This document shows positions 42,452-63,228 of a stretch of DNA of 64,000 bases, one piece after another. The notes beneath the pieces are model-generated. The model had not been told where the DNA came from and made no database searches. It saw nothing but the letters and a program-made list of their open reading frames with translations. Origin of the DNA: a virus (Duplodnaviria > Caudoviricetes); the IMG/VR virus record IMGVR_UViG_3300028048_000055, positions 1 through 64,000 of that record; one strand, 5' to 3'. The position numbers were made by a program, and so were the translations under genes. Each line of letters begins with the position of its first letter. Within the stretch, counting starts at the first letter, position 1.

Positions 42452-42480
42452 TTTACAAAACAAGAAAAAATTTCTATATT
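42452..42480 (+). promoter_or_regulatory. sigma70-type promoter of tRNA block 1
   Basis: TTTACA-N17-TATATT. Confidence 0.8.
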
Positions 42481-42542
42481 AATCAACGTAAAAACGAAAA
42501 ATGAAAAAAAGTTTTTATATATAATATAAAATGAGGATGAAA

Positions 42543-42605
42543 ATGCAATTAGTAATAACAACAAACATGACACCAGTCAATAATCCAAAGGTAACTTTCG
42601 ATTAG
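42543..42605 (+). CDS. attenuator leader peptide 1 MQLVITTNMTPVNNPKVTFD
   Basis: GAGG SD; T/N/V/P/M-rich, matching downstream tRNAs. Confidence 0.85.
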   Translation: MQLVITTNMTPVNNPKVTFD

Positions 42606-42631
42606 TTTGTTTCATTACTCGATTTCATTTG

Positions 42632-42666
42632 AATCCTGTATGAGACAAACTCAAACAGGATTTTTT
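42632..42666 (+). terminator. attenuator terminator 1
   Basis: AATCCTGT...ACAGGATT plus T tract. Confidence 0.85.
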
Positions 42667-42680
42667 AATTTTCCTTTTAT

Positions 42681-42994
42681 TGTTCCATAGCTCAGTTGGT
42701 AGAGCGACGGACTGTTTGAAATAGACACTTATATTGGAAACGATATATGAAAATCATCGCTAAGTCGGTGAAACCTGTAAAATGGCAACGCCGAGCAAGG
42801 ATTAGAAATAATCTATGTGTAGAGACTTTATACGATGAGCCTAAGTCAGTAATGATATGGCTAAGACAAAGTCCAGACTACAAACGAGTGTCCAATTTGC
42901 GCGGTGGGGGGCTTAACACCCATGCGGATGCTTGGTAACGAAAGTTATAGTAGTATGAATCCGTTGGTCCCTGGTTCGAGTCCAGGTGGAACAG
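42681..42994 (+). tRNA. tRNA-Asn(GTT) interrupted by a group I intron
   Basis: exon1 42681-42716, exon2 42958-42994 form a perfect cloverleaf. Confidence 0.92.
42717..42957 (+). ncRNA. group I intron (241 nt, no ORF)
   Basis: U.G pair at the 5' splice site in P1, terminal G, core elements TCGGTGAAACC, AACGCCGAGC, GTAGAGACT, AAGACAAAGTCC. Confidence 0.9.
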
Positions 42995-43000
42995 CTAACA

Positions 43001-43130
43001 CTTAGACAGTAATTGTTCATTGTTACAACGTTATTGTTACGCACGATGAAATTCATGCAAGTTTGGAATCGACAATATTTTGTTAATTCTGGGTAAAGTT
43101 TCAATGAATAGCGGGTGATTATTATCTAAG
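43001..43130 (+). ncRNA. unknown rod-like structured RNA
   Basis: CTTAGA/TCTAAG, TTGTTCATTG/CAATGAATAG, TATTGTT/GACAATA pairings. Confidence 0.4.
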
Positions 43131-43135
43131 TAGAT

Positions 43136-43208
43136 GCTGATGTAGCACAGCTGGTAGTGCAGCGGCTTTGTAATCCGCAGGTCGGGGGTTCGGATCCCTC
43201 CATCAGCG
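43136..43208 (+). tRNA. tRNA-Thr(TGT)
   Basis: cloverleaf. Confidence 0.92.
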
Positions 43209-43214
43209 CTAAAA

Positions 43215-43330
43215 ATATTGTTAGGCGTTATTTAGAAGCTGCAGACTCTTTATAATGCTAAGCCGGGTGCAGCAACGGGATGTCAGCTGCGGGAAGAGCT
43301 GGTATAATCAGAGACCTCCAGTAACAATAT
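43215..43330 (+). ncRNA. unknown structured RNA
   Basis: ATATTGTTA/TAACAATAT closing stem, internal CTCT/AGAG, TTATA/TATAA, GCAGC/GCTGC. Confidence 0.4.
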
Positions 43331-43398
43331 AATTTTTACATTAGGTGGTAGTCCACTAGGAAGTTGGATCTCCTTTAAACCAACAAAAGAGAATTTAT

Positions 43399-43482
43399 CG
43401 CGGGATAGTCTAATGGTAAGATATTGGGCTCATAACCCAAGGACTGGTAAAGCTTGTCTCGGTTCGACTCCGAGTCCCGCTA
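43399..43482 (+). tRNA. initiator-type tRNA-Met(CAT) with 17-nt variable region
   Basis: C1xU72 mismatch, GGG/CCC anticodon stem. Confidence 0.85.
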
Positions 43483-43521
43483 TAGTTTAGAGCAGTGGTT
43501 AGCTTATATTATAAATATTAT

Positions 43522-44280
43522 ATGGAATTAAAAATAAAACATATATGTAAATTTTGTAATATGGAGTTTACTACTGGGGCACAATTAGGAACACATATTT
43601 CTAAACAATGTCTTAAAAATCCAAATAGAGGAATACAAAAGAATTCTAAAATTTGGAAATGTTCAATTTGTGGTAATGATTTTCTTTCACGAAGAAGATT
43701 ACAACAGCATCGCAAAGATGAACATATTAACGAAATTAAAAGCAAATACTATGGGTATCATCCGATATTGAATATACCTTGTCAATTTTGCGGTTTAATT
43801 TGTAAAAGAGCTCGTGATTTAACAAGACATGAAAAATTTTGCAAAGAAAACCCAAATAAACAAATTTGGCAAGGACATAAAACTTCGGATGAAACTAAAA
43901 AGAAATTATCAGAAGCGGCTATTAAAAATCTTAGTGGTACACATTGTAATTGGTTAAATAAAAAGAAATCTTATGCTGAAGAATATTTTGAAACTATATT
44001 TACAAATGCTGAATCACAATATCAAGTTGGAAGATACGTATTAGATTTTGCATGGACTAAATCAAAAATTTATATTGAAGTTGATGGTGAACAGCATTAT
44101 ACTAAAGAAGGTATCGAACACGATAAGATTAGGACAGAATTTTTAATAGAAAATGGTTGGAGACTTTTAAAAAGAATTAGATGGTCTGAATTTCAAAAAC
44201 TTTCTAAAGCTGAACGTGAAAATGAAATTTATAGATTATTACAGACTATCAAAATTCAAGAAGAAACTAAAACGTTATGA
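43522..44280 (+). CDS. Zn-finger + DUF559/Vsr-like endonuclease
   Basis: C2H2-like fingers, Y.LDFAW..KIYIEVDGEQH; TATAAATA upstream. Confidence 0.85.
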   Translation: MELKIKHICKFCNMEFTTGAQLGTHISKQCLKNPNRGIQKNSKIWKCSICGNDFLSRRRLQQHRKDEHINEIKSKYYGYHPILNIPCQFCGLICKRARDLTRHEKFCKENPNKQIWQGHKTSDETKKKLSEAAIKNLSGTHCNWLNKKKSYAEEYFETIFTNAESQYQVGRYVLDFAWTKSKIYIEVDGEQHYTKEGIEHDKIRTEFLIENGWRLLKRIRWSEFQKLSKAERENEIYRLLQTIKIQEETKTL

Positions 44281-44318
44281 TCGTAGTCGGTCGGTGGTGG
44301 AACCACCTAAAAAACTTG

Positions 44319-44392
44319 CGGAGTGTAGCTCAGCCTGGTAGAGCATCTGCTTTGGGAGCAGAGGGTCGTGAGTTCGAATCTCGCTACTCCGA
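44319..44392 (+). tRNA. tRNA-Pro(TGG)
   Basis: cloverleaf. Confidence 0.95.
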
Positions 44393-44395
44393 TAA

Positions 44396-44458
44396 AAGAC
44401 ATAGGAAGTTCCTATTAATGAATATTTTTTAGGCAAATAAAATTATACTTCCCGTCTT
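44396..44458 (+). ncRNA. TCCTAT scaffold RNA copy 1 (anticodon-like loop TT-TAG-GC)
   Basis: AAGAC/GTCTT, GGAAGT/ACTTCC. Confidence 0.7.
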
Positions 44459-44460
44459 AA

Positions 44461-44535
44461 CTCTCCTTCGCCTAGCTGGTCATGGCACTTGCCTTACAAG
44501 CAAGCAAAACCTTGGTTCAAATCCAAGAGGGGAGA
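44461..44535 (+). tRNA. tRNA-Val(TAC)
   Basis: cloverleaf. Confidence 0.88.
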
Positions 44536-44541
44536 TAAAAA

Positions 44542-44660
44542 TATAGCATAGGTAGTTCCTATTACTAAGCGTATAGCTCAACTGGTGGAGCAGTTACCGA
44601 AAGGTAAAAGGTTGTCGGTTCGAATCCGATTGTGCTTGCCATTCGATACTACCCGCTATA
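44542..44660 (+). ncRNA. TCCTAT scaffold copy 2 enclosing an anticodon-less tRNA body (44567-44641, GAAA loop, CCA)
   Basis: TATAGC/GCTATA, GGTAGT/ACTACC. Confidence 0.75.
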
Positions 44661-44670
44661 AGGGTTTAAC

Positions 44671-44739
44671 GGCATAAGACGTTCCTATTTAGCTCATGTG
44701 AGCGTTTGATTGATATTCAAAAGGTTATTACGTCTCGCC
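44671..44739 (+). ncRNA. TCCTAT scaffold copy 3 (mini D arm + Ile GAT anticodon loop)
   Basis: GGC/GCC, AGACGT/ACGTCT; TTTGA-TTGATAT-TCAAA. Confidence 0.75.
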
Positions 44740-44796
44740 AAACTTTTAACAAAAAGAGAACAAACAAAAACATAAATAAACAAAAGAGAAAATAAA

Positions 44797-44862
44797 ATGA
44801 CTTACGTTATGAACACAAATAATACCAACCCTAATAATAACCCTGAGGTTCTACAGGATTAG
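44797..44862 (+). CDS. attenuator leader peptide 2 MTYVMNTNNTNPNNNPEVLQD
   Basis: 7 Asn, 3 Thr, 2 Pro; downstream tRNAs Asn/Pro/Thr. Confidence 0.88.
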   Translation: MTYVMNTNNTNPNNNPEVLQD

Positions 44863-44894
44863 TTTTGTTTCATAACTTGATGAATTTTTAAACT

Positions 44895-44934
44895 GGATCC
44901 TGTAAGATATTAGAACTTACAGGATTTCTTTTTT
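44895..44934 (+). terminator. attenuator terminator 2
   Basis: GGATCCTGTAAG/CTTACAGGATTT plus T tract. Confidence 0.88.
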
Positions 44935-44936
44935 AT

Positions 44937-45021
44937 TCTAGTGTACCCGAGTTGGTAGCAGGGGGAGGACTGTTAATCCTTTGGCGAAAGCCCGTCGCAC
45001 GTCCGAGTCGTGCCACTAGAG
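44937..45021 (+). tRNA. tRNA-Asn(GTT), long variable arm
   Basis: cloverleaf with GGC-GAAA-GCC variable arm, G73. Confidence 0.85.
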
Positions 45022-45030
45022 CTAAATTAT

Positions 45031-45114
45031 TGGTAGGTACCCGAGTGGTAGCAGGGGGCGGCCTGTTAAGCCGTTGGCGAAAGCCCGTCGTTGGTTCGAA
45101 TCCAACGTGGACAG
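45031..45114 (+). tRNA. tRNA-Asn(GTT)-like, long variable arm, mismatched acceptor stem
   Basis: TGGTAGG vs GTGGACA has 3 mismatches. Confidence 0.65.
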
Positions 45115-45123
45115 CTAAAATAT

Positions 45124-45203
45124 TGTCTTGTGGCGGAATTGGTAAACGCACTGCACTGTTAATGCAGCACTTCGGTTTGTAGGTTCGATGCCTACCAAGA
45201 CAG
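45124..45203 (+). tRNA. tRNA-Asn(GTT), Leu-like D arm, 11-nt variable region
   Basis: cloverleaf. Confidence 0.88.
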
Positions 45204-45213
45204 TTAGATAAAA

Positions 45214-45286
45214 CAGAATGTAGCTCAGATGGCAGAGCGCACCGTTCGGGGCGGTGAGGCCGGAGGATCGTAACCTCTCATTCTGA
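45214..45286 (+). tRNA. tRNA-Pro(CGG)
   Basis: cloverleaf, T loop ATCGTAA. Confidence 0.9.
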
Positions 45287-45294
45287 TAAAATAA

Positions 45295-45367
45295 CAGGGT
45301 GTAGGCTAGTTGGTTAGTCGCATGGCCTGGGACCATGTTCACGCAAGTTCGAATCTTGCCACCCTGA
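45295..45367 (+). tRNA. tRNA-Pro(TGG) with C33
   Basis: loop CCTGGGA. Confidence 0.85.
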
Positions 45368-45403
45368 TACAACCGAGCACTCTGACTGTATTATAAATAT
45401 AAT

Positions 45404-46039
45404 ATGAATGAATATATATGTAAATTTTGCGGTAAGATTTGTAAAAACATAAATTCTTTAAAAAATCATGAAAGATTATGTAAATTAAATCCTAATAGAC
45501 AAATATCGCCATTTGTAAAATATAATGCAGAGCATGAAACAAGTTGGAATAAAGGGCTTACAAAAGAAAATGATGAAAGAGTTAAGCAAATGGCTGAAAC
45601 TATGAGTCAAAAAATAAGAGCAGGCCTAATACATAACTATGATCATCAAAAAGTATGGACAGAAGAACGTAGAAAAGCACAATCTGAAAGGAAAAAGAAA
45701 TTTTATGAAGAACACCCAGAAAAGCATCCTAATAGCTTAGTAGCTGGTGCACTTAATAAAATGACATATCCTGAAAAATTAGTTACTGAATATTTAAAAG
45801 AACATAATATAACAGCAGAACATAATTGGTATTTTAAAACAGAAAAATTTACAAGATATATAGATTTTTATATAGATGAATTAAAATTATTTATTGAAGT
45901 TGATGGAGAATATTGGCACAAAGATAAACAAAAAGATATTGATAAAGATAATGATGCATTAATGTATGGTTATAAAACATTAAGGTTAAAACCAAAAACA
46001 GTTATAACACAATTAAATGAATTTTTTAATATGGCATAG
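45404..46039 (+). CDS. Zn-finger + DUF559/Vsr-like endonuclease
   Basis: CKFCG..H.RLC, WNKGLTKE, DFY..IEVDGEYWH. Confidence 0.85.
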   Translation: MNEYICKFCGKICKNINSLKNHERLCKLNPNRQISPFVKYNAEHETSWNKGLTKENDERVKQMAETMSQKIRAGLIHNYDHQKVWTEERRKAQSERKKKFYEEHPEKHPNSLVAGALNKMTYPEKLVTEYLKEHNITAEHNWYFKTEKFTRYIDFYIDELKLFIEVDGEYWHKDKQKDIDKDNDALMYGYKTLRLKPKTVITQLNEFFNMA

Positions 46040-46098
46040 GAAGTTCCTATTAGCTCAATGAGCATTTGATTGTTAATCAAAAGGTTTTACTTCCCGCC
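46033..46098 (+). ncRNA. TCCTAT scaffold copy 4 (mini D arm + Asn GTT anticodon loop)
   Basis: GGC/GCC, GGAAGT/ACTTCC; TTTGA-TTGTTAA-TCAAA. Confidence 0.75.
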
Positions 46099-46109
46099 TA
46101 AATTTTTTA

Positions 46110-46180
46110 GCTTCTATAATTCAATGGTAAAATGCCGGTTTAGTAGTCCGGATTTCTTGGTTCGAGTCCAGGTGGAAGCG
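46110..46180 (+). tRNA. tRNA-Thr(AGT)
   Basis: G1-C72/C2-G71, loop TT-AGT-AG. Confidence 0.75.
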
Positions 46181-46222
46181 TAAAAATCTAAACTTCTGCT
46201 CTACCGAATTTATAAATATAAT

Positions 46223-46882: not shown

Positions 46883-46914
46883 GTTAGTCGGGAGTTCGAA
46901 TCTCTCACCAGGCG
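46883..46914 (+). pseudogene. orphan tRNA 3' half (T arm + acceptor strand ACCAGGCG)
   Basis: GGGAG-TTCGAAT-CTCTC directly after the endonuclease stop. Confidence 0.6.
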
Positions 46915-46981
46915 TATCAATGAGAAAGGGTTGACATTTGTCGACCTTTTTTCTATATTAAAAGAAAAAGGAAATATAATA

Positions 46982-47902: not shown

Positions 47903-47904
47903 TC

Positions 47905-48507: not shown

Positions 48508-48539
48508 CAAAGAGAATATAATTTACTATATTTAACATC

Positions 48540-48608
48540 GTTAAAGCAAAGAATGTTCCTATTAATATCAAATTATTTTTAGCAGATGACAATACATTCC
48601 GCTTTAAC
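48540..48608 (+). ncRNA. TCCTAT scaffold copy 5 (loop TT-TAG-CA)
   Basis: GTTAAAGC/GCTTTAAC, GAATGT/ACATTC; starts just after promoter 48504-48532. Confidence 0.75.
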
Positions 48609-48941: not shown

Positions 48942-48970
48942 TTGACAAACCAAAAACTTTTTACTATATT
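48942..48970 (+). promoter_or_regulatory. sigma70-type promoter of tRNA block 3
   Basis: TTGACA-N17-TATATT. Confidence 0.8.
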
Positions 48971-49032: not shown

Positions 49033-49140
49033 ATGAACAAGAACTTTAACATTGAATTCATCGCGATTGCAGCAGAACGTATTGCAGAATTTGCAGAACG
49101 TGTTTTTGCGATTGACAATTCAGTGCACAGGTTCAAGTAA
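49033..49140 (+). CDS. attenuator leader peptide 3 MNKNFNIEFIAIAAERIAEFAERVFAIDNSVHRFK
   Basis: AAGGT SD; A6 E4 F5 I5 V2. Confidence 0.9.
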   Translation: MNKNFNIEFIAIAAERIAEFAERVFAIDNSVHRFK

Positions 49141-49170: not shown

Positions 49171-49205
49171 GGTTCCTGTGTATAACACAGGGACCTTAAT
49201 TTTTT
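49171..49205 (+). terminator. attenuator terminator 3
   Basis: GGTTCCTGTG/CACAGGGACC plus T-rich tail. Confidence 0.85.
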
Positions 49206-49297: not shown

Positions 49298-49368
49298 GGG
49301 CTTATGATGTAATGGTAGCATAATAGCTTTGCAAGCTATTTGTTAGGTTTCGAATACCTATAGGTCCA
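49298..49368 (+). tRNA. tRNA-Ala(TGC)
   Basis: cloverleaf, G3.U70. Confidence 0.88.
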
Positions 49369-49377
49369 CTATATTAT

Positions 49378-49451
49378 GCCGCTCAATCCGAATCCAGTGA
49401 TCGGACGGGACTGAAAATCCCAGAAGCTCAGGGCAGCACTGAGGGGCGGCA
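49378..49451 (+). tRNA. tRNA-Phe(GAA)
   Basis: cloverleaf, atypical D and T loops. Confidence 0.78.
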
Positions 49452-49463
49452 CGAAAACATTAT

Positions 49464-49537
49464 GGGCCAGTAGCCTAGTAGGAAAGGCACCGCACCTGCA
49501 ATGCGGAGTTCATGGGTTCGATCCCCATCTGTGTCCA
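49464..49537 (+). tRNA. tRNA-Ala(TGC), C33, bulged acceptor
   Basis: cloverleaf, G3.U70. Confidence 0.78.
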
Positions 49538-49547
49538 CTAAATTTTT

Positions 49548-49620
49548 GGGCTCGCATGTACCCTGGAGGCGAGCTGGCCTTGCAAGCCGGCTGAGATGGG
49601 TTCGACACCCACCGGGTCCA
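49548..49620 (+). tRNA. tRNA-Ala(TGC), weak D arm
   Basis: G3.U70; anticodon and T arms clear. Confidence 0.75.
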
Positions 49621-49677
49621 TGAAAATAAATTTACATTAAGGAGTTAAAATGGGAACTGATATGTAAAAATAAATAT

Positions 49678-49750
49678 GGGCTTATGGTGTAATTGGTAAC
49701 ATGTCGGCTTTGCAAGCCGAAGAGTCCGGAATCGTCCTCCGGTAGGTCCA
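49678..49750 (+). tRNA. tRNA-Ala(TGC)
   Basis: G3.U70, atypical T loop. Confidence 0.8.
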
Positions 49751-49755
49751 CTAAT

Positions 49756-49830
49756 GGGGGCAAAGGTTACTTTTCGCAACTTTTGCACAAAGAGTTCCTA
49801 ACTATATTGGTTCAATTCCAATAGCCTCCA
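49756..49830 (+). ncRNA. Ala-type acceptor/T-arm minihelix fused to a permuted TCCTA scaffold
   Basis: GGGGGC/GCCTCC-A with G3.U70; T-ACTTTT-C-GCAA-CTT-TTGC-ACA-AAGAGT-TCCTAA. Confidence 0.65.
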
Positions 49831-49840
49831 CTAAATTTAT

Positions 49841-49915
49841 GGGGCTGTAGCTCAGTTTTGGTGGAGCGGAAGACTGAAGATCTTCGCGTCGCAGGTTCGA
49901 TTCCTGCCGGGGGCA
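49841..49915 (+). tRNA. tRNA-Phe(GAA)-like, mismatched acceptor stem
   Basis: GGGGCTG vs CGGGGGC (three G.G pairs). Confidence 0.65.
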
Positions 49916-49922
49916 CTAATAT

Positions 49923-49997
49923 GGTTCTATCGTCTACGGAAGGCTAGGATGTAACCCTCTCAAGGTTATGAATTTGGTTCGACCCCAAATGGAACTA
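49923..49997 (+). tRNA. tRNA-Glu(CTC)
   Basis: cloverleaf. Confidence 0.88.
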
Positions 49998-50007
49998 TTA
50001 AAAATAT

Positions 50008-50081
50008 GGGACTTTAGAATATGCTGGTTAGTTCGCTGCCCTTTCAAGGCGGAAAGTCCGGATCATCGCCGGAAAGTCCTA
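50008..50081 (+). tRNA. tRNA-Glu(TTC)
   Basis: cloverleaf, paralog of 49216. Confidence 0.85.
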
Positions 50082-50090
50082 CTAAAATAT

Positions 50091-50164
50091 ATCCGATTAA
50101 CTCAGTGGTTCAGAGTGACGCTTTGACTAAGCGTAAGTCATAGGTTCGAATCCTTTATTGGGTA
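50091..50164 (+). tRNA. tRNA-Val(GAC)
   Basis: cloverleaf. Confidence 0.9.
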
Positions 50165-50168
50165 CTAT

Positions 50169-50245
50169 CCATAGGCATAACGATTGGTTTTCCGTTTGCC
50201 ACTCTGATAAGGTGGAGACTGTAGGTTCAAATCCTACCCTATGGA
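50169..50245 (+). tRNA. tRNA-Ile(GAT)
   Basis: cloverleaf. Confidence 0.85.
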
Positions 50246-52223: not shown

Positions 52224-52250
52224 TATTAACTATATAAAGAGTTTATAAAG

Positions 52251-52283
52251 ATGATTCCTGTGTAAAAACGGGAATCATTTTTT
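52251..52283 (+). terminator. attenuator terminator 4
   Basis: ATGATTCCTG/CGGGAATCAT plus T tract. Confidence 0.88.
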
Positions 52284-52287
52284 ATTT

Positions 52288-52358
52288 GGTCTCATCGTTT
52301 AATGGATGGACACTAGCTTGTCACGCTAGAAGTACGGGATCGTGACCCGTTGAGACCG
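52288..52358 (+). tRNA. tRNA-Asp(GTC)
   Basis: cloverleaf. Confidence 0.88.
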
Positions 52359-52365
52359 CTAATAA

Positions 52366-52430
52366 AATAGCATAAGAAGTTCCTATTGAAAAATACAGAC
52401 TGCAAATCCGTTAATATACTTCTCGCTATT
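52366..52430 (+). ncRNA. TCCTAT scaffold copy 7 (Cys GCA anticodon loop)
   Basis: AATAGC/GCTATT, AGAAGT/ACTTCT; ACAGA-CTGCAAA-TCCGT. Confidence 0.75.
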
Positions 52431-52435
52431 AATTT

Positions 52436-52509
52436 GGTACCTTAGTTCAGTTGGTTAGAATGCCAGCCTGTCACGCTGGAGGTCACGAGATCGAAGCTCG
52501 TAGGTATCG
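52436..52509 (+). tRNA. tRNA-Asp(GTC)
   Basis: cloverleaf. Confidence 0.92.
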
Positions 52510-52566
52510 TTAAGTCTGTTAAATTATTTTTGACAGGTTCGAAGAATAAAGAATTATATATAATAT

Positions 52567-53331
52567 ATGAATTACAGAAACATATATTATAAGATAATTG
52601 AGAAAGCAAAAAACGAGGATAAAAATGGACACAGACAGTTAGGTTATTTTGAAAAACATCATATATTACCTAAGTCATTAGGCGGTAGTAATGATAAAAA
52701 TAATTTAGTTAAACTTACAGCACGTGAACATTTTATTTGTCATTGGCTACTTGTTAAAATGTATGATAAAGGAACTGATGAAAGAAATAAAATGCTATGT
52801 GCTCTTTGGCGAATGCGTTCAAATCCATTACAAAATCATATACGGTATACTAATGCTAGAACATATGAAAATTTAAGAATAGAATATTCAAAAATTATAA
52901 GTAATCAAATGCATATTATACAAATGGGTAAAAACAATTCACAATTTGGAACTAAATGGTATACAAATAGAAATACAGGAGAAAGTAAAAAATTTAAAGA
53001 AAAACCAAAAGAAGAATATTGGATTGAAGGTAGAAATTTGTTTCATGGCGAAAGCAGTGTATTAAAAATAAAATTAATAACATTACGACATACTGAAACT
53101 AAAGTGCCGCAAAAAAATTATTTAAAATCAGTTGATGATGCACATAAATTATGGGATGAGTTTCATTCTGGAACTTATGAAAAATTAGATGACTTTGCTA
53201 AAATACACAATAAAACTAGAAGTGCAATATTTGTAAAATTTAAAAGATATATACCAGCATTTAATACAGATAAAAAACGTAGTTGCAGAAGTTATAAATC
53301 AAATAATATATTAATTGGAAAATATGAATAA
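52567..53331 (+). CDS. HNH homing endonuclease
   Basis: EKHHILPKSLGG...NLVKLTAREHFICHWLL. Confidence 0.9.
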   Translation: MNYRNIYYKIIEKAKNEDKNGHRQLGYFEKHHILPKSLGGSNDKNNLVKLTAREHFICHWLLVKMYDKGTDERNKMLCALWRMRSNPLQNHIRYTNARTYENLRIEYSKIISNQMHIIQMGKNNSQFGTKWYTNRNTGESKKFKEKPKEEYWIEGRNLFHGESSVLKIKLITLRHTETKVPQKNYLKSVDDAHKLWDEFHSGTYEKLDDFAKIHNKTRSAIFVKFKRYIPAFNTDKKRSCRSYKSNNILIGKYE

Positions 53332-53344
53332 TAGTTTTGAATAT

Positions 53345-53419
53345 AGTCTCGTAGGCTAAGTGGATTTAAACCAGAAGACTACGAATCTTCAATTTCCAGT
53401 TCGAATCTGGACGAGACTA
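53345..53419 (+). tRNA. tRNA-Arg(ACG)
   Basis: cloverleaf. Confidence 0.88.
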
Positions 53420-53567
53420 CTAGAGTTGTCAGCTTAACAACTTTAAATAAATGAGTTCCTGGAGTTTGTAGGTAGCTTCTGCACAAAATCAAAAACCTTC
53501 ATTATGCGGTGGGAGTTTTGCTGGCTTCTCGTGTCCGACACCGGGCAGATAAAAAACCAGTATTTAT

Positions 53568-53641
53568 GCGGTAGTAGCTCAACTGGTAGAGCACCGGATT
53601 GCCATTTCGGAGGTTTGTGGGTTCGAGACCCATCTACCGCT
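53568..53641 (+). tRNA. tRNA-Gly(GCC)
   Basis: cloverleaf, U73. Confidence 0.92.
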
Positions 53642-53650
53642 CTAAAATTT

Positions 53651-53722
53651 GGATCTGTAACTCAGAGGAAGAGTACCTGCCTCTTAAGCAGGGAGTCGTG
53701 ATATCGTAATTCACCAGGTCCA
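53651..53722 (+). tRNA. tRNA-Lys(CTT)
   Basis: cloverleaf. Confidence 0.88.
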
Positions 53723-53737
53723 TTAAAAAATTTCATC

Positions 53738-53808
53738 CCATGTGTAGTGTAACGGTAGCACGCAAGTTTGTGGCACTTGAAGATTGGATTCGACTTCCAA
53801 CCTATGGA
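53738..53808 (+). tRNA. tRNA-His(GTG), no encoded G-1, A73
   Basis: cloverleaf. Confidence 0.8.
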
Positions 53809-53812
53809 TAAT

Positions 53813-53884
53813 GCGGTTATGGTGTAACTGGCAACATAATAGTCTTCCAAACTGTAGTTTCGGGATCGTACCCCGATAGCCGCT
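53813..53884 (+). tRNA. tRNA-Gly(TCC)
   Basis: cloverleaf, U73. Confidence 0.88.
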
Positions 53885-53887
53885 CTA

Positions 53888-57285: not shown

Positions 57286-57314
57286 TTTACAAACAGAAAA
57301 TAATTTACTATATT
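57286..57314 (+). promoter_or_regulatory. sigma70-type promoter of tRNA block 5
   Basis: TTTACA-N17-TATATT. Confidence 0.8.
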
Positions 57315-57376: not shown

Positions 57377-57463
57377 ATGAAGACTCTTAGTTTAACACTT
57401 GTCCTACTCAGTAGCCTGCTCCTCAGCTGGTTATTGCGTCGTAATATAGTGGGAACTAAGTAG
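57377..57463 (+). CDS. attenuator leader peptide 5 MKTLSLTLVLLSSLLLSWLLRRNIVGTK
   Basis: AAGGT SD; L10 (all six codons), S4 (all AGY), W1. Confidence 0.9.
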   Translation: MKTLSLTLVLLSSLLLSWLLRRNIVGTK

Positions 57464-57491: not shown

Positions 57492-57524
57492 AAGGTTCCC
57501 ATAAGTTGGGGACCTTAATTTTTT
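57492..57524 (+). terminator. attenuator terminator 5
   Basis: AAGGTTCCCA/TGGGGACCTT plus T tract. Confidence 0.85.
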
Positions 57525-57528
57525 ATAT

Positions 57529-57600
57529 AGCTCTATGAGGTAACGGTAGCCTACGAGACTCCAAATCTGCGAAATCCCTGTTCGAATCGGGGTAGGGCTG
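57529..57600 (+). tRNA. tRNA-Trp(CCA), imperfect anticodon stem
   Basis: CGAGA-CTCCAAA-TCTGC, G73. Confidence 0.8.
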
Positions 57601-57604
57601 TAAA

Positions 57605-57694
57605 CGGTCTGTGATTGGAATTGGTATACAGCATCGGCTTAAACCCGGTGGCCGAGATAAATACGGATTGGGGGTTCGAGTCCCTTCAGGCCGA
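57605..57694 (+). tRNA. tRNA-Leu(TAA)
   Basis: class II cloverleaf. Confidence 0.88.
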
Positions 57695-57704
57695 TAAAAT
57701 ATAA

Positions 57705-57786
57705 CGGTATGTGATGGAATGTATACATGCGGGCTTGAGAGGTCCGTGCCCAAAAGGGATTGGGAGTGCGAATCTCCCCGTACCGA
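57705..57786 (+). tRNA. tRNA-Leu(GAG)
   Basis: class II cloverleaf. Confidence 0.85.
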
Positions 57787-57794
57787 TAACATAA

Positions 57795-57878
57795 CGTCAG
57801 GTGGAGTAATTGGTAGCCTCGCAAGAACGAGAGTCTTGTGGTAGAAATACCGTGAGGGTTCGAGTCCCTCTCTGACGA
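57795..57878 (+). tRNA. tRNA-Leu(GAG) with A32/C33
   Basis: loop ACGAGAG, A73, long variable arm. Confidence 0.78.
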
Positions 57879-57887
57879 TAAATTAAT

Positions 57888-57972
57888 GGAAGCGTAGGCT
57901 AATAGGTAAGCCAGCACTTTGCTAAAGTGCCGTGGAGAAATCTGCTTGAAGGTTCGAGCCCTTCCGCTTCCG
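57888..57972 (+). tRNA. tRNA-Ser(GCT)
   Basis: class II cloverleaf, G73. Confidence 0.92.
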
Positions 57973-57980
57973 CTACATAT

Positions 57981-58092
57981 TGCTTGGTGGTGAAAATCGT
58001 GTGGCCTAGGCGCATCGTAGGTAAACACGCCCCGCATAGTAGGGGTGTCTACTTAGCTGGTAGACTTGTTGGTTCGAGTCCAACCTAAGCAG
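57981..58092 (+). tRNA. aberrant 112-nt class II tRNA-like RNA (hairpin inserted in D loop, 8-nt anticodon loop GCATAGTA)
   Basis: good acceptor, T and variable arms. Confidence 0.55.
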
Positions 58093-58100
58093 TTAAATAT

Positions 58101-58174
58101 CCACTGGTGATGGAACTGGCATACATATCGGATTCAAAACCCGAGTTTTGAGGGTTCGACTCCCTCCTGGTGGA
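58101..58174 (+). tRNA. tRNA-Leu(CAA), short variable loop
   Basis: cloverleaf, A73. Confidence 0.85.
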
Positions 58175-58180
58175 CTAAAT

Positions 58181-58265
58181 GGCCGAGTGATGGAACTGGC
58201 GAGACAACGGTGCCTTAGAAGCATCGGTCCGAAAGGGCGTGTGGGTTCGAATCCCACCTTGGCCA
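58181..58265 (+). tRNA. tRNA-Leu(TAG)
   Basis: class II cloverleaf. Confidence 0.9.
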
Positions 58266-58267
58266 CT

Positions 58268-60262: not shown

Positions 60263-60291
60263 TTTACAAACAGAAAATAAATTACTATATT
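60263..60291 (+). promoter_or_regulatory. sigma70-type promoter of tRNA block 6
   Basis: TTTACA-N17-TATATT. Confidence 0.8.
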
Positions 60292-60357: not shown

Positions 60358-60447
60358 ATGAACTATCAGTTATATACATCATGCACTTCTTCATGCAGAC
60401 AGCAGTCTTCATGTTATTGCATGTATTCCATTAAAACTGATGGGTGA
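60358..60447 (+). CDS. attenuator leader peptide 6 MNYQLYTSCTSSCRQQSSCYCMYSIKTDG
   Basis: AAGGA SD; S6 (all UCN), Y4, C4, Q3 (all CAG). Confidence 0.9.
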   Translation: MNYQLYTSCTSSCRQQSSCYCMYSIKTDG

Positions 60448-60477
60448 CATCATTAAAGTTTGTATATAAACTTTTAT

Positions 60478-60508
60478 GGCGTCACGAAAAGTGACGCTTT
60501 TATTTTTT
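60478..60508 (+). terminator. attenuator terminator 6
   Basis: GGCGTCAC-GAAAA-GTGACGCT plus T tract. Confidence 0.88.
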
Positions 60509-60516: not shown

Positions 60517-60601
60517 GGCAGTTTCGGATAGCGGCAATTCCTGGAGGCTGTAACCCTCCCGCCTTAACGGGCTTCCGTAGGTTCGAGTCCTACAGCTGTC
60601 A
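60517..60601 (+). tRNA. tRNA-Tyr(GTA)
   Basis: class II cloverleaf. Confidence 0.9.
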
Positions 60602-60621
60602 CTAAAAATTTATGAATTTAT

Positions 60622-60708
60622 GCTAGTTTGGCAGAGTGGCGAATGCGCGTGACTGTAGATCACGTCTCTAACGAGTTAACATCAGGGGTTCGACTCCCTT
60701 AGCTAGCA
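60622..60708 (+). tRNA. tRNA-Tyr(GTA)
   Basis: class II cloverleaf. Confidence 0.9.
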
Positions 60709-60725
60709 CTAAAATATAGGTAAAA

Positions 60726-61262
60726 ATGTCAATAAGTTTAATTGAAAAATATGGAGAAGATTATATACGTAATGTTTTTAAAACTGCCAAAACAGTTGAT
60801 GAAGCATGTGAAAAATTACAAACAATAACAAAATATTTAAATTATTATGCAAAAGAATTAAATTGTATTGATGATTATAATAGAATAAAAATTAATTCTA
60901 GTCAAATTGTTAAAGAACGTTTAAAAGATTATCCAGATGCATACATAATGAAAAATGTTAATGGTGTAGTTACACGTACTATAAATGATGATGCATGGCT
61001 TAAATTAATTTTTGAAAATAAAATTAGTAGTAAAAAACAAACAATATTACGTATTCTTATTAAAGCAGGATATAAAGAAAATAAATGTGAATGTTGCGGT
61101 ATTAATGAATGGAATAAAAAACCAATAACTTTACAATTACATCACAAAAATGGAAATCCACGTGATAATTGTTTAGAAAATTTAGAAATATTATGTCCAA
61201 ATTGTCATTCACAAACTAATAATTATGGAAGTAAAAATGCGGCATTACATATAAAAGATTAA
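60726..61262 (+). CDS. HNH endonuclease
   Basis: CECCG...LQLHHKNGNPRDN..ENLEILCPNCHS. Confidence 0.9.
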   Translation: MSISLIEKYGEDYIRNVFKTAKTVDEACEKLQTITKYLNYYAKELNCIDDYNRIKINSSQIVKERLKDYPDAYIMKNVNGVVTRTINDDAWLKLIFENKISSKKQTILRILIKAGYKENKCECCGINEWNKKPITLQLHHKNGNPRDNCLENLEILCPNCHSQTNNYGSKNAALHIKD

Positions 61263-61529
61263 AACACAAACGAGTAGAACCCGTGTTGCATCATTCTTGA
61301 TTTCATGCTAACGGGCTAACCCAGATGGGGAAAACTCTGGGACGAGGAATCTGCTCTTGCGAATTAGATGAATAACAGAATGATGGTCGCAAGAGTGTAG
61401 TATTGGCTCTACTAAAATATGCCACGTGAGGCCACTTGAAATAAGAGTGAGCGGAGAGAAATTCTGGATTAACCACCTGCTGTGCTCCTTAATCAGTCCT
61501 TGCAATTAGGACGCCTGTAAGTTTGTGTT
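61263..61529 (+). ncRNA. unknown multi-stem structured RNA (~270 nt)
   Basis: AACACAAAC/GTTTGTGTT closing stem, several GC-rich hairpins, CATCATTCT/AGAATGATG long-range pairing. Confidence 0.6.
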
Positions 61530-61535
61530 AATTGT

Positions 61536-61608
61536 GCTGATATAGCCAAGTCTGGTAAGGCTGATGGTTGCAACCCATCGATCGGGAGTTCGAATCTCTC
61601 TATCAGCT
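61536..61608 (+). tRNA. tRNA-Cys(GCA)
   Basis: cloverleaf, U73. Confidence 0.92.
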
Positions 61609-61613
61609 CTACA

Positions 61614-61708
61614 TGTAGCATAGGATGTTCCTATTAATGGAAGATAGGCCATCAGGCCTTGATTCGGTTCAAATCCGAAAGCCGAAAGGCAAATTACATC
61701 CCGCTATA
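61614..61708 (+). ncRNA. TCCTAT scaffold copy 8 (T arm plus two hairpins)
   Basis: TGTAGC/GCTATA, GGATGT/ACATCC; TTCGG-TTCAAAT-CCGAA. Confidence 0.75.
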
Positions 61709-61720
61709 AGAAATTAAAAA

Positions 61721-61791
61721 ATGGCATAAGAAGTTCCTATTTCGCCCGTTAGGGCATCCGACTTGAAATCAGACTAATTACTTCTCGCTAT
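61721..61791 (+). ncRNA. TCCTAT scaffold copy 9 (hairpin + Ser TGA anticodon loop)
   Basis: ATGGC/GCTAT, AGAAGT/ACTTCT; TCCGA-CTTGAAA-TCAGA. Confidence 0.75.
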
Positions 61792-61796
61792 TTAAC

Positions 61797-61868
61797 GGCA
61801 GTATAACACAATGGTTAGTGTAGCGGAATCATAATCCGTTAATATTGGTTCGAATCCAGTTATTGCTA
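61797..61868 (+). tRNA. tRNA-Met(CAT), elongator type
   Basis: cloverleaf, G2-C71/C3-G70; Ile2 not excluded. Confidence 0.8.
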
Positions 61869-61884
61869 TAATAAAAAATTAATT

Positions 61885-62718
61885 ATGAAGTTAAAATACA
61901 TATGTCAATATTGTAATAAAGAATTAACTAGGCCATGTGCATTAGCTATACATCAACGTGTTTGTAAATTAAATCCAAATAGACAACCGTTAATAAATAA
62001 TGGTAATTTAAATATAGCTAAATATCATAAACCTAAGGCTCCATATGGAACATGGAAATGTAAGTGGTGTAATAATGACATTATTTTTGATACTAGAAAA
62101 CAATTAAAAGAACATTTAAAAGAAAAACATCCAGAAAAACGTAATGCATGGAATAAAGGCTTAACAAAAGAAACTGATGAACGTGTTAAACAATTTGGTC
62201 AAACATATTCTAAGCGAATAAAAAATAAAGAAATATCTGCACTTTTTGCAGGCAAAAAACATACAGATGAATGGCGAAAAAATCATTCAGAATTACAAAA
62301 AGAAAGATATAAAGGAATATCGATATATGCAACCGTAAGGGAAAAACGAAAATCTTATCCTGAACAATATTTTGATAAAATATTTAGTGATGCAGAAAAA
62401 CAATATCATGTAGATAGTTATTTTTTAGATTATGCATGGCCATATATTAAATTATATATTGAAGTTGATGGTGAACAACATTATACTGAATCTGGTTTAC
62501 TTCATGATAAAGAAAGAGCAGAAATATTAAGTAAATTAGGTTGGAATTGTATTACGCGTATTAGATGGAAAAATTATATAAAATTAACAACTAATGAAAA
62601 AGAAAATTTTATAAATAATTTATTAAATAAAATTAATATTTTTAAAAATGAAACTATAGGAAGCAAAACAGACTGCCGGCTCCTATATACGGTGTACAAC
62701 GTCGAAGATAAGGTCTAG
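61885..62718 (+). CDS. Zn-finger + DUF559/Vsr-like endonuclease
   Basis: paralog of 43522; LDYAW..LYIEVDGEQHY. Confidence 0.85.
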   Translation: MKLKYICQYCNKELTRPCALAIHQRVCKLNPNRQPLINNGNLNIAKYHKPKAPYGTWKCKWCNNDIIFDTRKQLKEHLKEKHPEKRNAWNKGLTKETDERVKQFGQTYSKRIKNKEISALFAGKKHTDEWRKNHSELQKERYKGISIYATVREKRKSYPEQYFDKIFSDAEKQYHVDSYFLDYAWPYIKLYIEVDGEQHYTESGLLHDKERAEILSKLGWNCITRIRWKNYIKLTTNEKENFINNLLNKINIFKNETIGSKTDCRLLYTVYNVEDKV

Positions 62719-62784
62719 GGTTTGTAAGTTTCAGTATTGGAGAAACTTATACGGCAAGGTTCACCGGGAACAATGAACCATTTT

Positions 62785-62870
62785 TGAGGATTAACCCTAA
62801 TTGGTAAGGGCACGGTTTGGAATACCGTCGTGGGTTTACTCACTTGAAAGTTCGAGTCTTTCATCCTCAG
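62785..62870 (+). tRNA. tRNA-Ser(GGA)
   Basis: class II cloverleaf. Confidence 0.9.
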
Positions 62871-62972
62871 CTACGTATGGTGTTAGCGTTAAAACGGCAT
62901 AGGTATACATATGCACGGCACTGCACAGATGAACTATGCGTATTACTGTGCAAAATAAAAAATACGCTGTCT

Positions 62973-63056
62973 GGAAGAGCATCAGATTGGCGACTCAAGC
63001 TGTCCTGAAAACAGTAGTTCCGCAAGGGCTTGTGGGTTCAAATCCCTCCTCTTCCT
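62973..63056 (+). tRNA. tRNA-Ser(TGA) with C33
   Basis: class II cloverleaf, loop CCTGAAA. Confidence 0.8.
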
Positions 63057-63061
63057 CTAAT

Positions 63062-63142
63062 GGAAGATTAGACTAACTGGTAAGTCAGCAATTTCGAACG
63101 TTGCCGCCGAAAGGCTTGGGTGTTCGAGTCACTCATCTTCCG
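63062..63142 (+). tRNA. tRNA-Ser(CGA)
   Basis: class II cloverleaf. Confidence 0.9.
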
Positions 63143-63152
63143 TTATATTTTC

Positions 63153-63228
63153 TGTCCGTTAGCCAAGTCTGTTCTAAGGCAGGGGTCTCTGAAGCCTCCA
63201 TTCGGTGGTTAAAATCCATCACGGACAA
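63153..63228 (+). tRNA. tRNA-Gln(CTG)
   Basis: cloverleaf, U1-A72. Confidence 0.85.

Follow-up and report, generated by a model that had tools for sequence, protein, structure and literature searches.

The question raised by this locus is why each of six tRNA blocks in a phage genome lies behind a short open reading frame (ORF) and an intrinsic terminator. The window, a stretch of 64,000 nucleotides, stems from an uncultured T4-like giant phage. Complete genomes of its relatives measure 411-424 kb; the record itself is a 165 kb fragment with a completeness of about 40%. Between 42452 and 63228 on the + strand, the window contains six units, each running from a short ORF through an intrinsic terminator into a tRNA block. 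A first-pass annotation had described six such modules, five of them with a promoter. All six were recovered in place with leader ORF, terminator and tRNA block, and five carry promoters of their own, module 2 being the one without. The features are as follows.

42452..42480, +, module 1 sigma70-like promoter (TTTACA, 17 nt, TATATT)
42531..42605, +, leader 1 ORF, rich in Thr(ACA), Asn, Pro(CCA), Val(GTA) and Met
42631..42672, +, module 1 intrinsic terminator with T tract (-15.5 kcal/mol)
42681..44641, +, block 1: split Asn(GUU), Thr(UGU), Met or Ile2(CAU), homing endonuclease gene, Pro(UGG), Val(UAC), odd tRNA with a 6-nt anticodon loop
44797..44862, +, leader 2 ORF, without its own promoter: 7 Asn, 3 Thr, 2 Pro; putative antiterminator strand 44851-44861
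44895..44936, +, module 2 terminator with T tract (-14 kcal/mol); first tRNA from 44937
44937..46180, +, block 2: three Asn(GUU), Pro(CGG), Pro(UGG), homing endonuclease gene, Thr(AGU)
48942..48970, +, module 3 promoter (TTGACA, 17 nt, TATATT)
49033..49140, +, leader 3 ORF: Ala GCA/GCG, Glu GAA, Phe, Ile ATT/ATC, Val; putative antiterminator strand 49124-49135
49171..49205, +, module 3 terminator with T tract (11 pairs, about -18 to -20 kcal/mol)
49298..50245, +, block 3: four Ala(UGC), Phe(GAA), Glu(CUC), Glu(UUC), Val(GAC), Ile(GAU)
51902-51930, +, module 4 promoter, upstream of an odd tRNA-like gene
51977-52047, +, module 4 odd tRNA-like gene with a short anticodon loop
52122..52223, +, leader 4 ORF: Asp, Arg CGC/CGA, Gly, Lys AAG, His; putative antiterminator strand 52209-52221
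52247..52287, +, module 4 terminator with T tract (-16 to -19 kcal/mol); tRNA-Asp from 52288
52288..53885, +, block 4: two Asp(GUC), HNH endonuclease gene, Arg(ACG), Gly(GCC), Lys(CUU), His(GUG), Gly(UCC)
57286..57314, +, module 5 promoter (TTTACA, 17 nt, TATATT)
57377..57463, +, leader 5 ORF: all six Leu codons, Ser AGY only, one Trp; putative antiterminator strand 57449-57458
57492..57524, +, module 5 terminator with T tract (-16 kcal/mol); tRNA-Trp from 57528
57528..58266, +, block 5: Trp(CCA), Leu(UAA), two Leu(GAG), Ser(GCU), 124-nt tRNA-like element, Leu(CAA), Leu(UAG)
60263..60291, +, module 6 promoter (TTTACA, 17 nt, TATATT)
60358..60447, +, leader 6 ORF: Tyr, Cys, Ser TCN only, Gln CAG only, Met; putative antiterminator strand about 60443-60452
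60478..60508, +, module 6 terminator with T tract (-15.5 to -17 kcal/mol)
60517..63228, +, block 6: two Tyr(GUA), ORF, Cys(GCA), Met(CAU), homing endonuclease gene, Ser(GGA), Ser(UGA), Ser(CGA), Gln(CUG)

Leader 1 probably starts at its third ATG (42543), since GAGGA lies 5 nt upstream and the orthologue in one relative (G002) starts there. Five modules combine the sigma70-like promoter (TTTACA or TTGACA, 17 nt, TATATT) with a second AT-rich, promoter-like motif that is unique to these leaders; neither element was found upstream of module 2. The second motif is present where a module heads a unit and degenerate where it sits directly behind another block. The odd tRNA-like element of module 4 likewise precedes the Asp leader in relatives. 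All six leaders are followed by a predicted terminator, consisting of a hairpin of -14 to -20 kcal/mol and a T tract. The distance from T tract to first tRNA gene is 93 nt in module 3 and 1-9 nt in the other five, which therefore have no room for another promoter.

ARAGORN identified 38 tRNAs, to which Rfam and relaxed ARAGORN settings added Phe(GAA) at 49844, Ile(GAU) at 50169, a third Asn(GUU) at 45038 and Ser(UGA) at 62973. The Asn(GUU) gene at 42681-43035 is split by an intron. Together, the tRNAs of the six blocks cover all 20 amino acids, as the first-pass annotation had proposed. Relatives hold at least one further module, for Lys(UUU), Gln(UUG), Arg(UCU) and Ile(UAU), and some of their tRNA sets have a plain promoter and no leader.

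The codons of each leader match the tRNAs of its own block. At the level of amino acids, 103 of 164 leader codons match, compared with a permuted mean of 38, bearing out the earlier claim that the leaders are enriched for the amino acids of the following tRNAs; under strict wobble rules the match is 93 of 164, compared with a permuted mean of 30. The true pairing of leaders and blocks is the best of 720 permutations for the six window modules, and the best of 120, 5040 and 720 in the relatives G001, G002 and G003, respectively. Binomial P values per leader range from 3e-5 to 7e-8, and only 0-4 of about 26,000 real-gene windows of the same length reach the observed match. Among 30 leaders, the match amounts to 58% in the frame of the ORF versus 13% and 16% in the other two. 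About 40% of the leader codons are unmatched; the Ala and Leu leaders, for instance, carry conserved CGT codons, and the Asp leader has Phe-Val-Val close to its start.

Furthermore, the match extends to synonymous codons. Lys is encoded by AAG ahead of Lys(CUU) (21 of 21 codons) and by AAA ahead of Lys(UUU) (7 of 8), and Arg by CGC/CGA ahead of Arg(ACG) (23 of 24) and by AGA ahead of Arg(UCU) (8 of 9). The same partition is seen for Ser, with AGY ahead of Ser(GCU) (23/24) and TCN ahead of Ser(GGA/UGA/CGA) (16/16), and for Ile, with ATA ahead of Ile(UAU) (6/7) and ATT/ATC ahead of Ile(GAU) (13/13). Gln follows with CAG ahead of Gln(CUG) in 8 of 9 cases and CAA ahead of Gln(UUG) in 6 of 8. In leader 5, half of the ten Leu codons are the rare CTA, CTC and CTG, each with a genome usage of 3-5%, ahead of Leu(GAG) and Leu(UAG).

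In relatives, leader codons shift along with tRNA genes that have changed blocks. The Leu/Ser/Trp leader has acquired Cys codons where its block holds tRNA-Cys, and Cys and Gln codons where the block holds both of those tRNAs; in the latter genome, Cys codons have disappeared from the Tyr leader, which retains a single Gln codon. Ile codons appear in the Tyr leader where Ile(GAU) belongs to its block, and in the Ala/Glu/Phe leader, Ile and additional Val codons are confined to genomes in which its block contains Ile and Val tRNAs. Permuting blocks among orthologous leaders gave 39.8 +/- 5.0 compared with 59 observed (P = 5e-5). The check put forward with the first annotation, that leader codons track block anticodons in related phages, thus came out positive. 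The genome is AT-rich with many short ORFs, and the leaders might be chance frames or relics whose match to the tRNAs is a coincidence or an effect of composition. We give this reading next to no credence; it was rejected by the permutation, sliding-window, frame, codon-partition and co-variation tests.

We postulate, with considerable confidence, that the units are ribosome-mediated attenuators which raise transcription of a block when decoding is slow. The anatomy, codon matching, co-variation and pairing geometry are drawn from sequence and comparison; leader translation, termination at the hairpins and the direction of the response we infer. Host RNA polymerase would start at the sigma70-like promoter and transcribe a leader of 20-35 codons, which would be translated during its own transcription. 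The central codons would form a roster, listing what the downstream tRNAs decode. If all rostered codons are decoded fast, the ribosome would reach the last codons and the stop codon and cover the strand able to pair with the 5' arm of the terminator; the terminator would then form, and transcription would stop a few nucleotides short of the first tRNA gene. Where even one rostered codon is slow, with its charged tRNA scarce, the ribosome would wait upstream, the 3' end of the leader would pair with the 5' arm, and the polymerase would read into the whole block. Control would act block by block, at the resolution of single anticodons. As the tRNA product speeds decoding of the leader, the circuit would regulate decoding capacity through negative feedback. 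One argument against the model is that additional tRNA would not relieve ribosome stalls that arise from amino-acid starvation.

The predicted duplex between the leader 3' end with its stop codon and the terminator 5' arm has an energy of -8.6 to -14.6 kcal/mol; of 31 distinct leader/terminator pairs examined, 26 reach p <= 0.036. The first-pass annotation had placed this pairing in every module. It holds for modules 2-5 (p 0.001-0.016) and is weak in module 6 (p about 0.1); among the 31 pairs, no significant duplex was found for module 1 and for the Lys/Gln/Arg module of one relative. Three Tyr leaders possess three different terminator stems, with significant pairing in two of them (p 0.002 and 0.013) and weak pairing in that of the window (p 0.12). 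In the Leu family, a C-to-U change at one site of the 5' arm is accompanied by G-to-A in both partner strands; pairing amounts to 100% in the terminator and 95.8% in the antiterminator.

These observations also bear on a reading in which the leaders are translated and codon-matched but act without termination, through processing or stability of tRNA precursors or protection from Rho. The position of leader 2 within a polycistronic tRNA transcript would suit it. We nevertheless consider it very improbable, given the canonical hairpin and T tract behind every leader, within 1-9 nt of the first tRNA in five modules, and the pairing of the leader end with the hairpin 5' arm, with compensatory changes.

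For the attenuation model, folding was simulated co-transcriptionally with a ribosome footprint, before the terminator 3' arm is made. With the A site on a rostered codon, the 5' arm is predicted to be sequestered with P 0.64-0.87. Over the last 3-9 codons, the modelled sequestration drops to 0.02-0.31 in four units, but stays higher in modules 4 and 5, at 0.31-0.57. In all six units, the predicted drop starts at the end of the matched run or within 3 codons of it. The proposal of leader-peptide attenuation, codon-matched per block, is strongly supported in silico, by frame and anticodon specificity, by leader changes that accompany the transfer of tRNA genes, by the position of the antiterminator strand and its co-variation with the terminator, and by the footprint-model switch in six of six units.

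The logic might instead be inverted, with efficient leader translation promoting read-through and a block switched on only when its codons decode well. Equilibrium folding of modules 3, 5 and 6 gives no clear direction. The terminator is favoured there at most ribosome positions, a point against the attenuation model, in which antitermination would therefore have to be kinetic, as it is in classical attenuators. In the folding model, moreover, three leaders (modules 2, 4 and 6) fold into the antiterminator when no ribosome is present. However, the strand pairing with the 5' arm overlaps the very end of the leader, its final codons and stop codon, so a ribosome finishing translation there would mask it, and it is hard to see what positive feedback would achieve for an abundant product. 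An inverted response thus seems to us very unlikely.

What such attenuators would be selected for is a separate matter. Plain autoregulation of tRNA supply accounts for the same anatomy. A main role in counter-defence, as put forward in the first-pass annotation, in which host anticodon nucleases deplete tRNAs, the matching leader stalls and only the replacing block is switched on, is a tentative possibility. Sensors of single anticodons would suit damage to specific tRNAs, and genes for an RtcB-type RNA ligase (2e-122) and for phosphoesterases, kinds of enzymes able to reseal cleaved tRNAs, are present in the window. The phage RtcB gene is the sole circumstantial support; it could equally serve the several insertion-bearing tRNA genes present here. 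Moreover, the blocks cover all 20 amino acids, beyond the usual targets of nucleases, and nothing in the sequence separates counter-defence from plain homeostasis. It has been proposed that phage tRNA sets stand in for host tRNAs that tRNA-targeting defences deplete (PMC10264068). This could explain why an infected cell would lose decoding capacity and come to need phage tRNAs. The paper deals with tRNA sequence and not with the control of tRNA expression, and attenuation or a leader is not mentioned in its text (PMC10264068).

The closest parallels to the proposed attenuators are found among enterobacterial amino-acid operons (ilvGMEDA, thr, trpL, hisL, pheL, leuL), which likewise combine a short translated leader of regulatory codons with an intrinsic terminator, and in which the 5' strand of the antiterminator also overlaps the leader end. 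Multivalent leaders (ilvGMEDA for Leu/Val/Ile, thr for Thr/Ile) respond to several amino acids with OR logic, as the phage units would. In contrast, no clear protector pairing is seen in three of the six phage leaders when translation is absent; the untranslated trp leader terminates, whereas modules 2, 4 and 6 are predicted to adopt the antiterminator. Furthermore, amino-acid operon attenuators control biosynthetic enzymes, whereas the phage units would control tRNA genes, and the sensed molecule would therefore be the product itself.

Leader-peptide attenuation of a gene of the translation apparatus is known from E. coli pheST, where the pheM leader senses charged tRNA-Phe. Unlike the phage units, this cellular system controls a synthetase, responds to one amino acid and governs no tRNA gene. 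T-box riboswitches also couple tRNA state to terminator read-through upstream of translation-related genes, but they bind uncharged tRNA directly and do not need translation, on which the phage leader model depends. An Rfam scan of the region returned only tRNA scores and no T-box or other cis-regulatory family. In Mycobacterium tuberculosis, small upstream ORFs with Cys codons reportedly sense VapC4-cleaved tRNA-Cys through ribosome stalling, in work attributed to Barth et al. 2021; this is said to be a cellular stress response over protein-coding genes, not tRNA genes. Our literature search found no paper describing attenuation logic of the trp-operon type for tRNA genes. Compared with enterobacterial leaders, the phage rosters comprise up to five or six amino acids and discriminate synonymous codons, and as a whole, six or more such units would partition the entire code in a phage.

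The tRNA genes of the window are organized into six units, each composed of a short ATG open reading frame (the leader), an intrinsic terminator, and a block of tRNA genes. The leaders span 20-35 codons, are preceded at 5-10 nt by AAGG or GAGG, and lie on the same strand as, and directly upstream of, their blocks. Leader start and frame are conserved in relatives, for which the leader set was compiled with an automatic finder and supplemented by hand with missed leaders; the finder also gave a small number of false leaders inside tRNA blocks.

Leader ORFs of the six units
42531, + strand: short ATG ORF ahead of tRNA block 1 (Asn/Thr)
44797, + strand: short ATG ORF ahead of tRNA block 2 (Asn)
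49033, + strand: short ATG ORF ahead of tRNA block 3 (Ala)
52122, + strand: short ATG ORF ahead of tRNA block 4 (Asp)
57377, + strand: short ATG ORF ahead of tRNA block 5 (Leu)
60358, + strand: short ATG ORF ahead of tRNA block 6 (Tyr)

A sigma70-like promoter (TTTACA or TTGACA, 17 nt, TATATT) is located 65-90 nt upstream of the leader in five units, except in unit 4, where an odd tRNA-like gene intervenes and the distance is 192 nt. These five units also carry a second AT-rich motif immediately before the ribosome-binding site, which is found elsewhere in the 165 kb just once, on the other strand. Unit 2, situated directly behind block 1, has neither element. Behind every leader (6/6) lies a hairpin (-14 to -20 kcal/mol) with a T tract, the T tracts being at 42672, 44936, 49205, 52287, 57524, and 60508 in units 1 to 6; four of these hairpins also pass a stricter terminator scan. 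As the first tRNA begins 1-9 nt past the T tract in five units, their blocks can be transcribed only through the terminator. The modular order described in the first-pass annotation, namely a promoter in five of six modules, a Shine-Dalgarno sequence, a 20-35 codon ORF, a terminator, and a tRNA block, was thus recovered at all six places. Downstream of the leaders, we found tRNA and homing endonuclease genes alone and no amino-acid biosynthesis enzymes. Some tRNA sets in relatives are served by a plain promoter without a leader.

The 38 tRNA genes called by ARAGORN span 43136-63228 and share the + strand. Further tRNAs came from Rfam, from ARAGORN at relaxed settings, and from inspection by eye.

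tRNA genes in addition to the 38 ARAGORN calls
42681-43035: split Asn(GUU), first gene of block 1, with a ~240-nt insertion just 3' of the anticodon
45038: third Asn(GUU)
49844: Phe(GAA)
50169: Ile(GAU)
62973: Ser(UGA)

The resulting tRNA set covers all 20 amino acids, in agreement with the earlier claim. The genes between the tRNAs encode homing endonucleases, either HNH or with a Vsr-like DUF559 domain and C2H2 zinc fingers. The insertion in the split tRNA-Asn(GUU) holds a 63-codon ORF (42747-42938) and a sub-threshold group I intron match (42705-42896; 27.7 bits against a cut-off of 50), and the orthologue in the related genome G002 (locus L058, 3791-3863) is uninterrupted. Two further tRNA genes, 44567-44641 and 51977-52047, score 44 and 48 bits with Rfam, yet have anticodon loops of at most 6 nt; the latter is the odd gene between promoter and leader 4, and its position is kept in the relatives G001, G003, and G004. 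tRNA-like elements of 122-124 nt with extra arms lie at 48613-48734 and 57975-58098, and similar ~112-nt elements sit ahead of the Ala leader in relatives. Long variable arms are unusual for bacterial Met/Ile and Asn tRNAs; here, they occur in tRNAs of 82-86 nt with CAU or GUU anticodons (43398-43483, 44937-45022, 45123-45204), which the Arg(ACG) of relatives resembles. An R2K-clade ATP-grasp gene (53888-54623), located elsewhere in relatives, begins 3 nt past the last block-4 tRNA and ends at a terminator, a placement which suggests that, in the present genome, it may be transcribed together with block 4 under attenuator 4.

The codon content of each leader follows the block behind it. Amino acids of the own block are encoded by 103 of the 164 leader codons (start excluded), compared to a mean of 38 over 720 leader-block assignments, of which the true one is the best; the proposed enrichment of each leader for its own block's amino acids is thereby confirmed. 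At the codon level, with strict wobble, 93/164 codons match the own block versus 30 expected. Per-leader binomial P values against genome usage range from 3e-5 to 7e-8, and 0-4 of the ~26,000 same-length windows drawn from 82 long ORFs attain the observed match. The permutation of leader codons against downstream anticodons that had been suggested for related phages likewise places the true pairing first, as the best of 120 (G001), 5040 (G002), and 720 (G003). These statistical tests rule out that the leaders are chance ORFs. Across 30 leaders, anticodon-matched codons account for 58% of the ORF frame versus 13% and 16% of the other frames. The match is frame-specific, so the information is written in codons and hence presumably read by ribosomes. 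Approximately 40% of leader codons are without a match to their own block.

The correspondence extends to synonymous codons, which we partitioned by downstream anticodon across the combined leader set of the window and relatives.

Synonymous codons of leaders sorted by downstream anticodon
Lys: AAG 21/21 before Lys(CUU); AAA 7/8 before Lys(UUU)
Arg: CGC/CGA 23/24 before Arg(ACG); AGA 8/9 before Arg(UCU)
Ser: AGY 23/24 before Ser(GCU); TCN 16/16 before Ser(GGA/UGA/CGA)
Ile: ATA 6/7 before Ile(UAU); ATT/ATC 13/13 before Ile(GAU)
Gln: CAG 8/9 before Gln(CUG); CAA 6/8 before Gln(UUG)

One relative, with both Gln tRNAs in its block, has the two Gln codons in the leader. All six Leu codons occur in leader 5, including CTA, CTC, and CTG, each of which makes up 3-5% of the Leu codons in phage genes.

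Furthermore, the leaders track tRNA genes that have moved between blocks. In the window, G001, and G002, the Leu/Ser/Trp leader is free of Cys and Gln codons; at locus L026 of a relative it has two Cys codons with tRNA-Cys in the block, and in G003 two Cys and two Gln codons with both tRNAs in the block. Correspondingly, the Tyr leader of G003, whose block lacks Cys and Gln tRNAs, has lost its Cys codons and keeps one Gln codon. Three or four Ile codons mark the Tyr leaders of G001 and G002, whose blocks include Ile(GAU); in the window, no Ile tRNA is present in the Tyr block, and the leader's sole Ile codon sits in the tail. In the Ala/Glu/Phe leader, four or five Ile codons occur in the window and G003 only, where Ile and Val tRNAs end the block, and the G003 leader has extra Val codons besides. 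Permuting blocks among orthologous leaders, scored on just those amino acids whose tRNA occurs in some members, gave 59 matches versus 39.8 +/- 5.0 (P = 5e-5).

Two apparent exceptions were resolved. Asp leaders seemed to carry Arg codons without an Arg tRNA; relaxed ARAGORN settings and hand reading of one miscalled gene recovered Arg(ACG) in every Asp block examined. ATA codons in a Lys/Gln/Arg leader without a called Ile tRNA are accounted for by an insertion-bearing Ile(UAU) gene in G003 (locus L061, ~3590-3690), missed by ARAGORN, with a ~27-nt insertion in the anticodon loop; its presence was predicted from the ATA codons of the upstream leader. The G001 Tyr leader (locus L054, 2300-2395) has an in-frame TAA at codon 9, with the remaining frame, terminator, and antiterminator intact and no suppressor tRNA seen in the block of this module. 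Possible explanations for the TAA are a natural knockout, an error in the assembly, or read-through at this codon.

The last three to five leader codons and the stop codon form the strand that pairs with the terminator 5' arm (the antiterminator). Such pairing had been claimed for every module; it holds for units 2-5 (duplexes of -11 to -15 kcal/mol, p 0.001-0.016 versus random genome segments), is weak in unit 6 (-7.5 kcal/mol, p ~0.1 (0.12)), and is absent between leader end and 5' arm in unit 1. The Lys/Gln/Arg unit of one relative is likewise without a clean antiterminator duplex. Among relatives, pairing reaches significance throughout the Ala, Asn, Asp, Leu, and Arg/Ser/His leaders (p 0.001-0.036), with p 0.026-0.036 in the weakest members of the Asp family. 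Three Tyr leaders face three different terminator stems, and pairing with the own stem is significant in two (p 0.002 and 0.013) and weak in that of the window. When eight Leu-family units are aligned, all cells (100%) of the terminator are paired, as are 95.8% of those of the antiterminator; where the shared 5' arm carries a single C-to-U change, both of its partners show G-to-A, a three-way compensatory change.

Equilibrium terminator probability as a function of ribosome position gave no consistent switch; this model is uninformative because the terminator usually wins thermodynamically. We therefore refer to a co-transcriptional footprint model, which considers the RNA before the 3' arm is made and hides the bases under the ribosome. 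In this model, with any rostered codon (one read by the block's tRNAs) in the A site, the 5' arm is sequestered with a probability of 0.64-0.87. Once the ribosome is in the last 3-9 codons, sequestration drops to 0.02-0.31 for four units, but units 4 and 5 reach only 0.31-0.57, so that the modelled switch is seen in 6/6 units, partial in these two and clear in the others. The drop starts at, or at most three codons from, the end of the matched run in 6/6 units; the unmatched leader tail therefore serves as both spacer and antiterminator strand. Without a ribosome, three leaders adopt the antiterminator fold in the footprint model. In minimum-energy folds of modules 1, 3, 4, and 5, which differ in this from 2 and 6, the leader body pairs with the leader end and the terminator is kept.

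The most likely mechanism of the units is leader-peptide attenuation of the trp/his/ilv type, a reading that we consider quite probable and that is well supported by sequence and comparison. Fast decoding is predicted to bring the ribosome to the stop codon, where it would mask the antiterminator, so that transcription would end immediately ahead of the first tRNA. If any rostered codon were decoded slowly, the antiterminator would stay free and the whole block would be transcribed. As the tRNAs made would speed leader decoding, each unit would control, by negative feedback, the decoding capacity for its own anticodon set.

The first-pass annotation had further envisaged a counter-defence role, in which tRNAs cut by host anticodon nucleases are replaced on demand; we regard this idea as possible but less likely than not. 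It would fit with the anticodon resolution of the leaders and with an RtcB-type RNA ligase gene at 16999-18189 (PHROG tRNA splicing ligase, 2e-122); plain homeostasis, however, explains the same anatomy, and RtcB could instead serve the insertion-bearing tRNA genes. Two phosphoesterase genes lie near RtcB (27385-28470 and 36594-37499), and together these enzymes could take part in repairing tRNAs or in splicing the products of insertion-bearing tRNA genes. It is conceivable, if on balance doubtful, that the leaders form a surveillance array, in which at least six to seven sensors monitor all 20 amino acids per anticodon, register the selective destruction of tRNAs, whether by anticodon nucleases of the host or through host shut-off by the phage itself, and transcribe the replacement block alone, in concert with RtcB-based tRNA repair. 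If true, this would represent a programmable counter-defence layer on the translation apparatus.

The window makes up the first 64 kb of a 165-kb IMG/VR record that is ~40% complete (CheckV); it is AT-rich (~31% G+C), and its + strand carries almost all transcription. The IMG/VR relatives measure 411-424 kb with 46-56 tRNA hits each; CheckV rates two, which have terminal repeats, as 100% complete and the third as 98% complete. The clamp loader is T4-like, with at most 37% identity to any cultured phage protein (T4-like cyanophage, Campylobacter phage), and both sigma70-type promoter-like sites and T4-type TATAAATA motifs are frequent; this places the uncultured phage among the distant T4-like phages, with a presumed reliance on host RNA polymerase. 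A megablast of 8 kb for close cultured relatives returned just tRNA-Pro fragments from other phages, and a sensitive search with block 4 yielded nothing beyond scattered tRNA and homing-endonuclease matches. The T4 late-promoter consensus TATAAATA lies at most 60 nt upstream of 26 ORF starts in the 165-kb record (43510, 45392, and 46211 in the window, and 23 more), among them homing endonuclease genes within tRNA blocks, and exactly 4 nt ahead of the ATG at 11 of these, a placement pointing to late mRNAs that are nearly leaderless. On the - strand, a transposase gene (30193-31521) lies in the sole stretch where GC skew falls to zero and is probably an insertion sequence within the phage genome.

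Attenuation is known for amino-acid operons; to our knowledge, no tRNA genes are known to be under leader-peptide attenuation, and a full-text literature search returned no account of it. An eLife paper on phage tRNAs versus tRNA-targeting defences does not mention such control (PMC10264068). The phage leaders do not match the T-box riboswitch (Rfam RF00230), nor does Rfam report any other known cis-regulatory RNA, as tRNA is the one family to reach the gathering threshold. Over 42600-52100 (modules 1-3), relaxing the cut-off to E <= 0.1 adds a weak tmRNA as the sole non-tRNA match; at E <= 5 over 42600-43130, the sub-threshold group I intron match also appears.

The arrangement implies that phage tRNAs would be supplied on demand, codon by codon, which suggests that decoding capacity is a contested resource in giant-phage infection. 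The rosters would be compact sensors telling synonymous codons apart and are possible reporters of tRNA availability or anticodon-nuclease activity. Leader-block co-variation also offers an annotation-free assignment of odd phage tRNAs to codons, as for the intron-bearing Ile(UAU) and ATA. As a whole, the device would work like the multivalent attenuators of enterobacterial amino-acid operons, with which it shares the codon-enriched short leader, the intrinsic terminator, and, in most units, the alternative pairing at the leader end, with wider rosters that, unlike theirs, distinguish synonymous codons. In contrast to trp, three phage leaders are predicted to form the antiterminator when untranslated. 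Because they control tRNA genes, the phage units do not belong to the set of amino-acid-operon attenuators (trpL, hisL, ilvL, and others); they would instead apply a textbook mechanism to a new target, with the ribosome measuring the product of the genes it gates.
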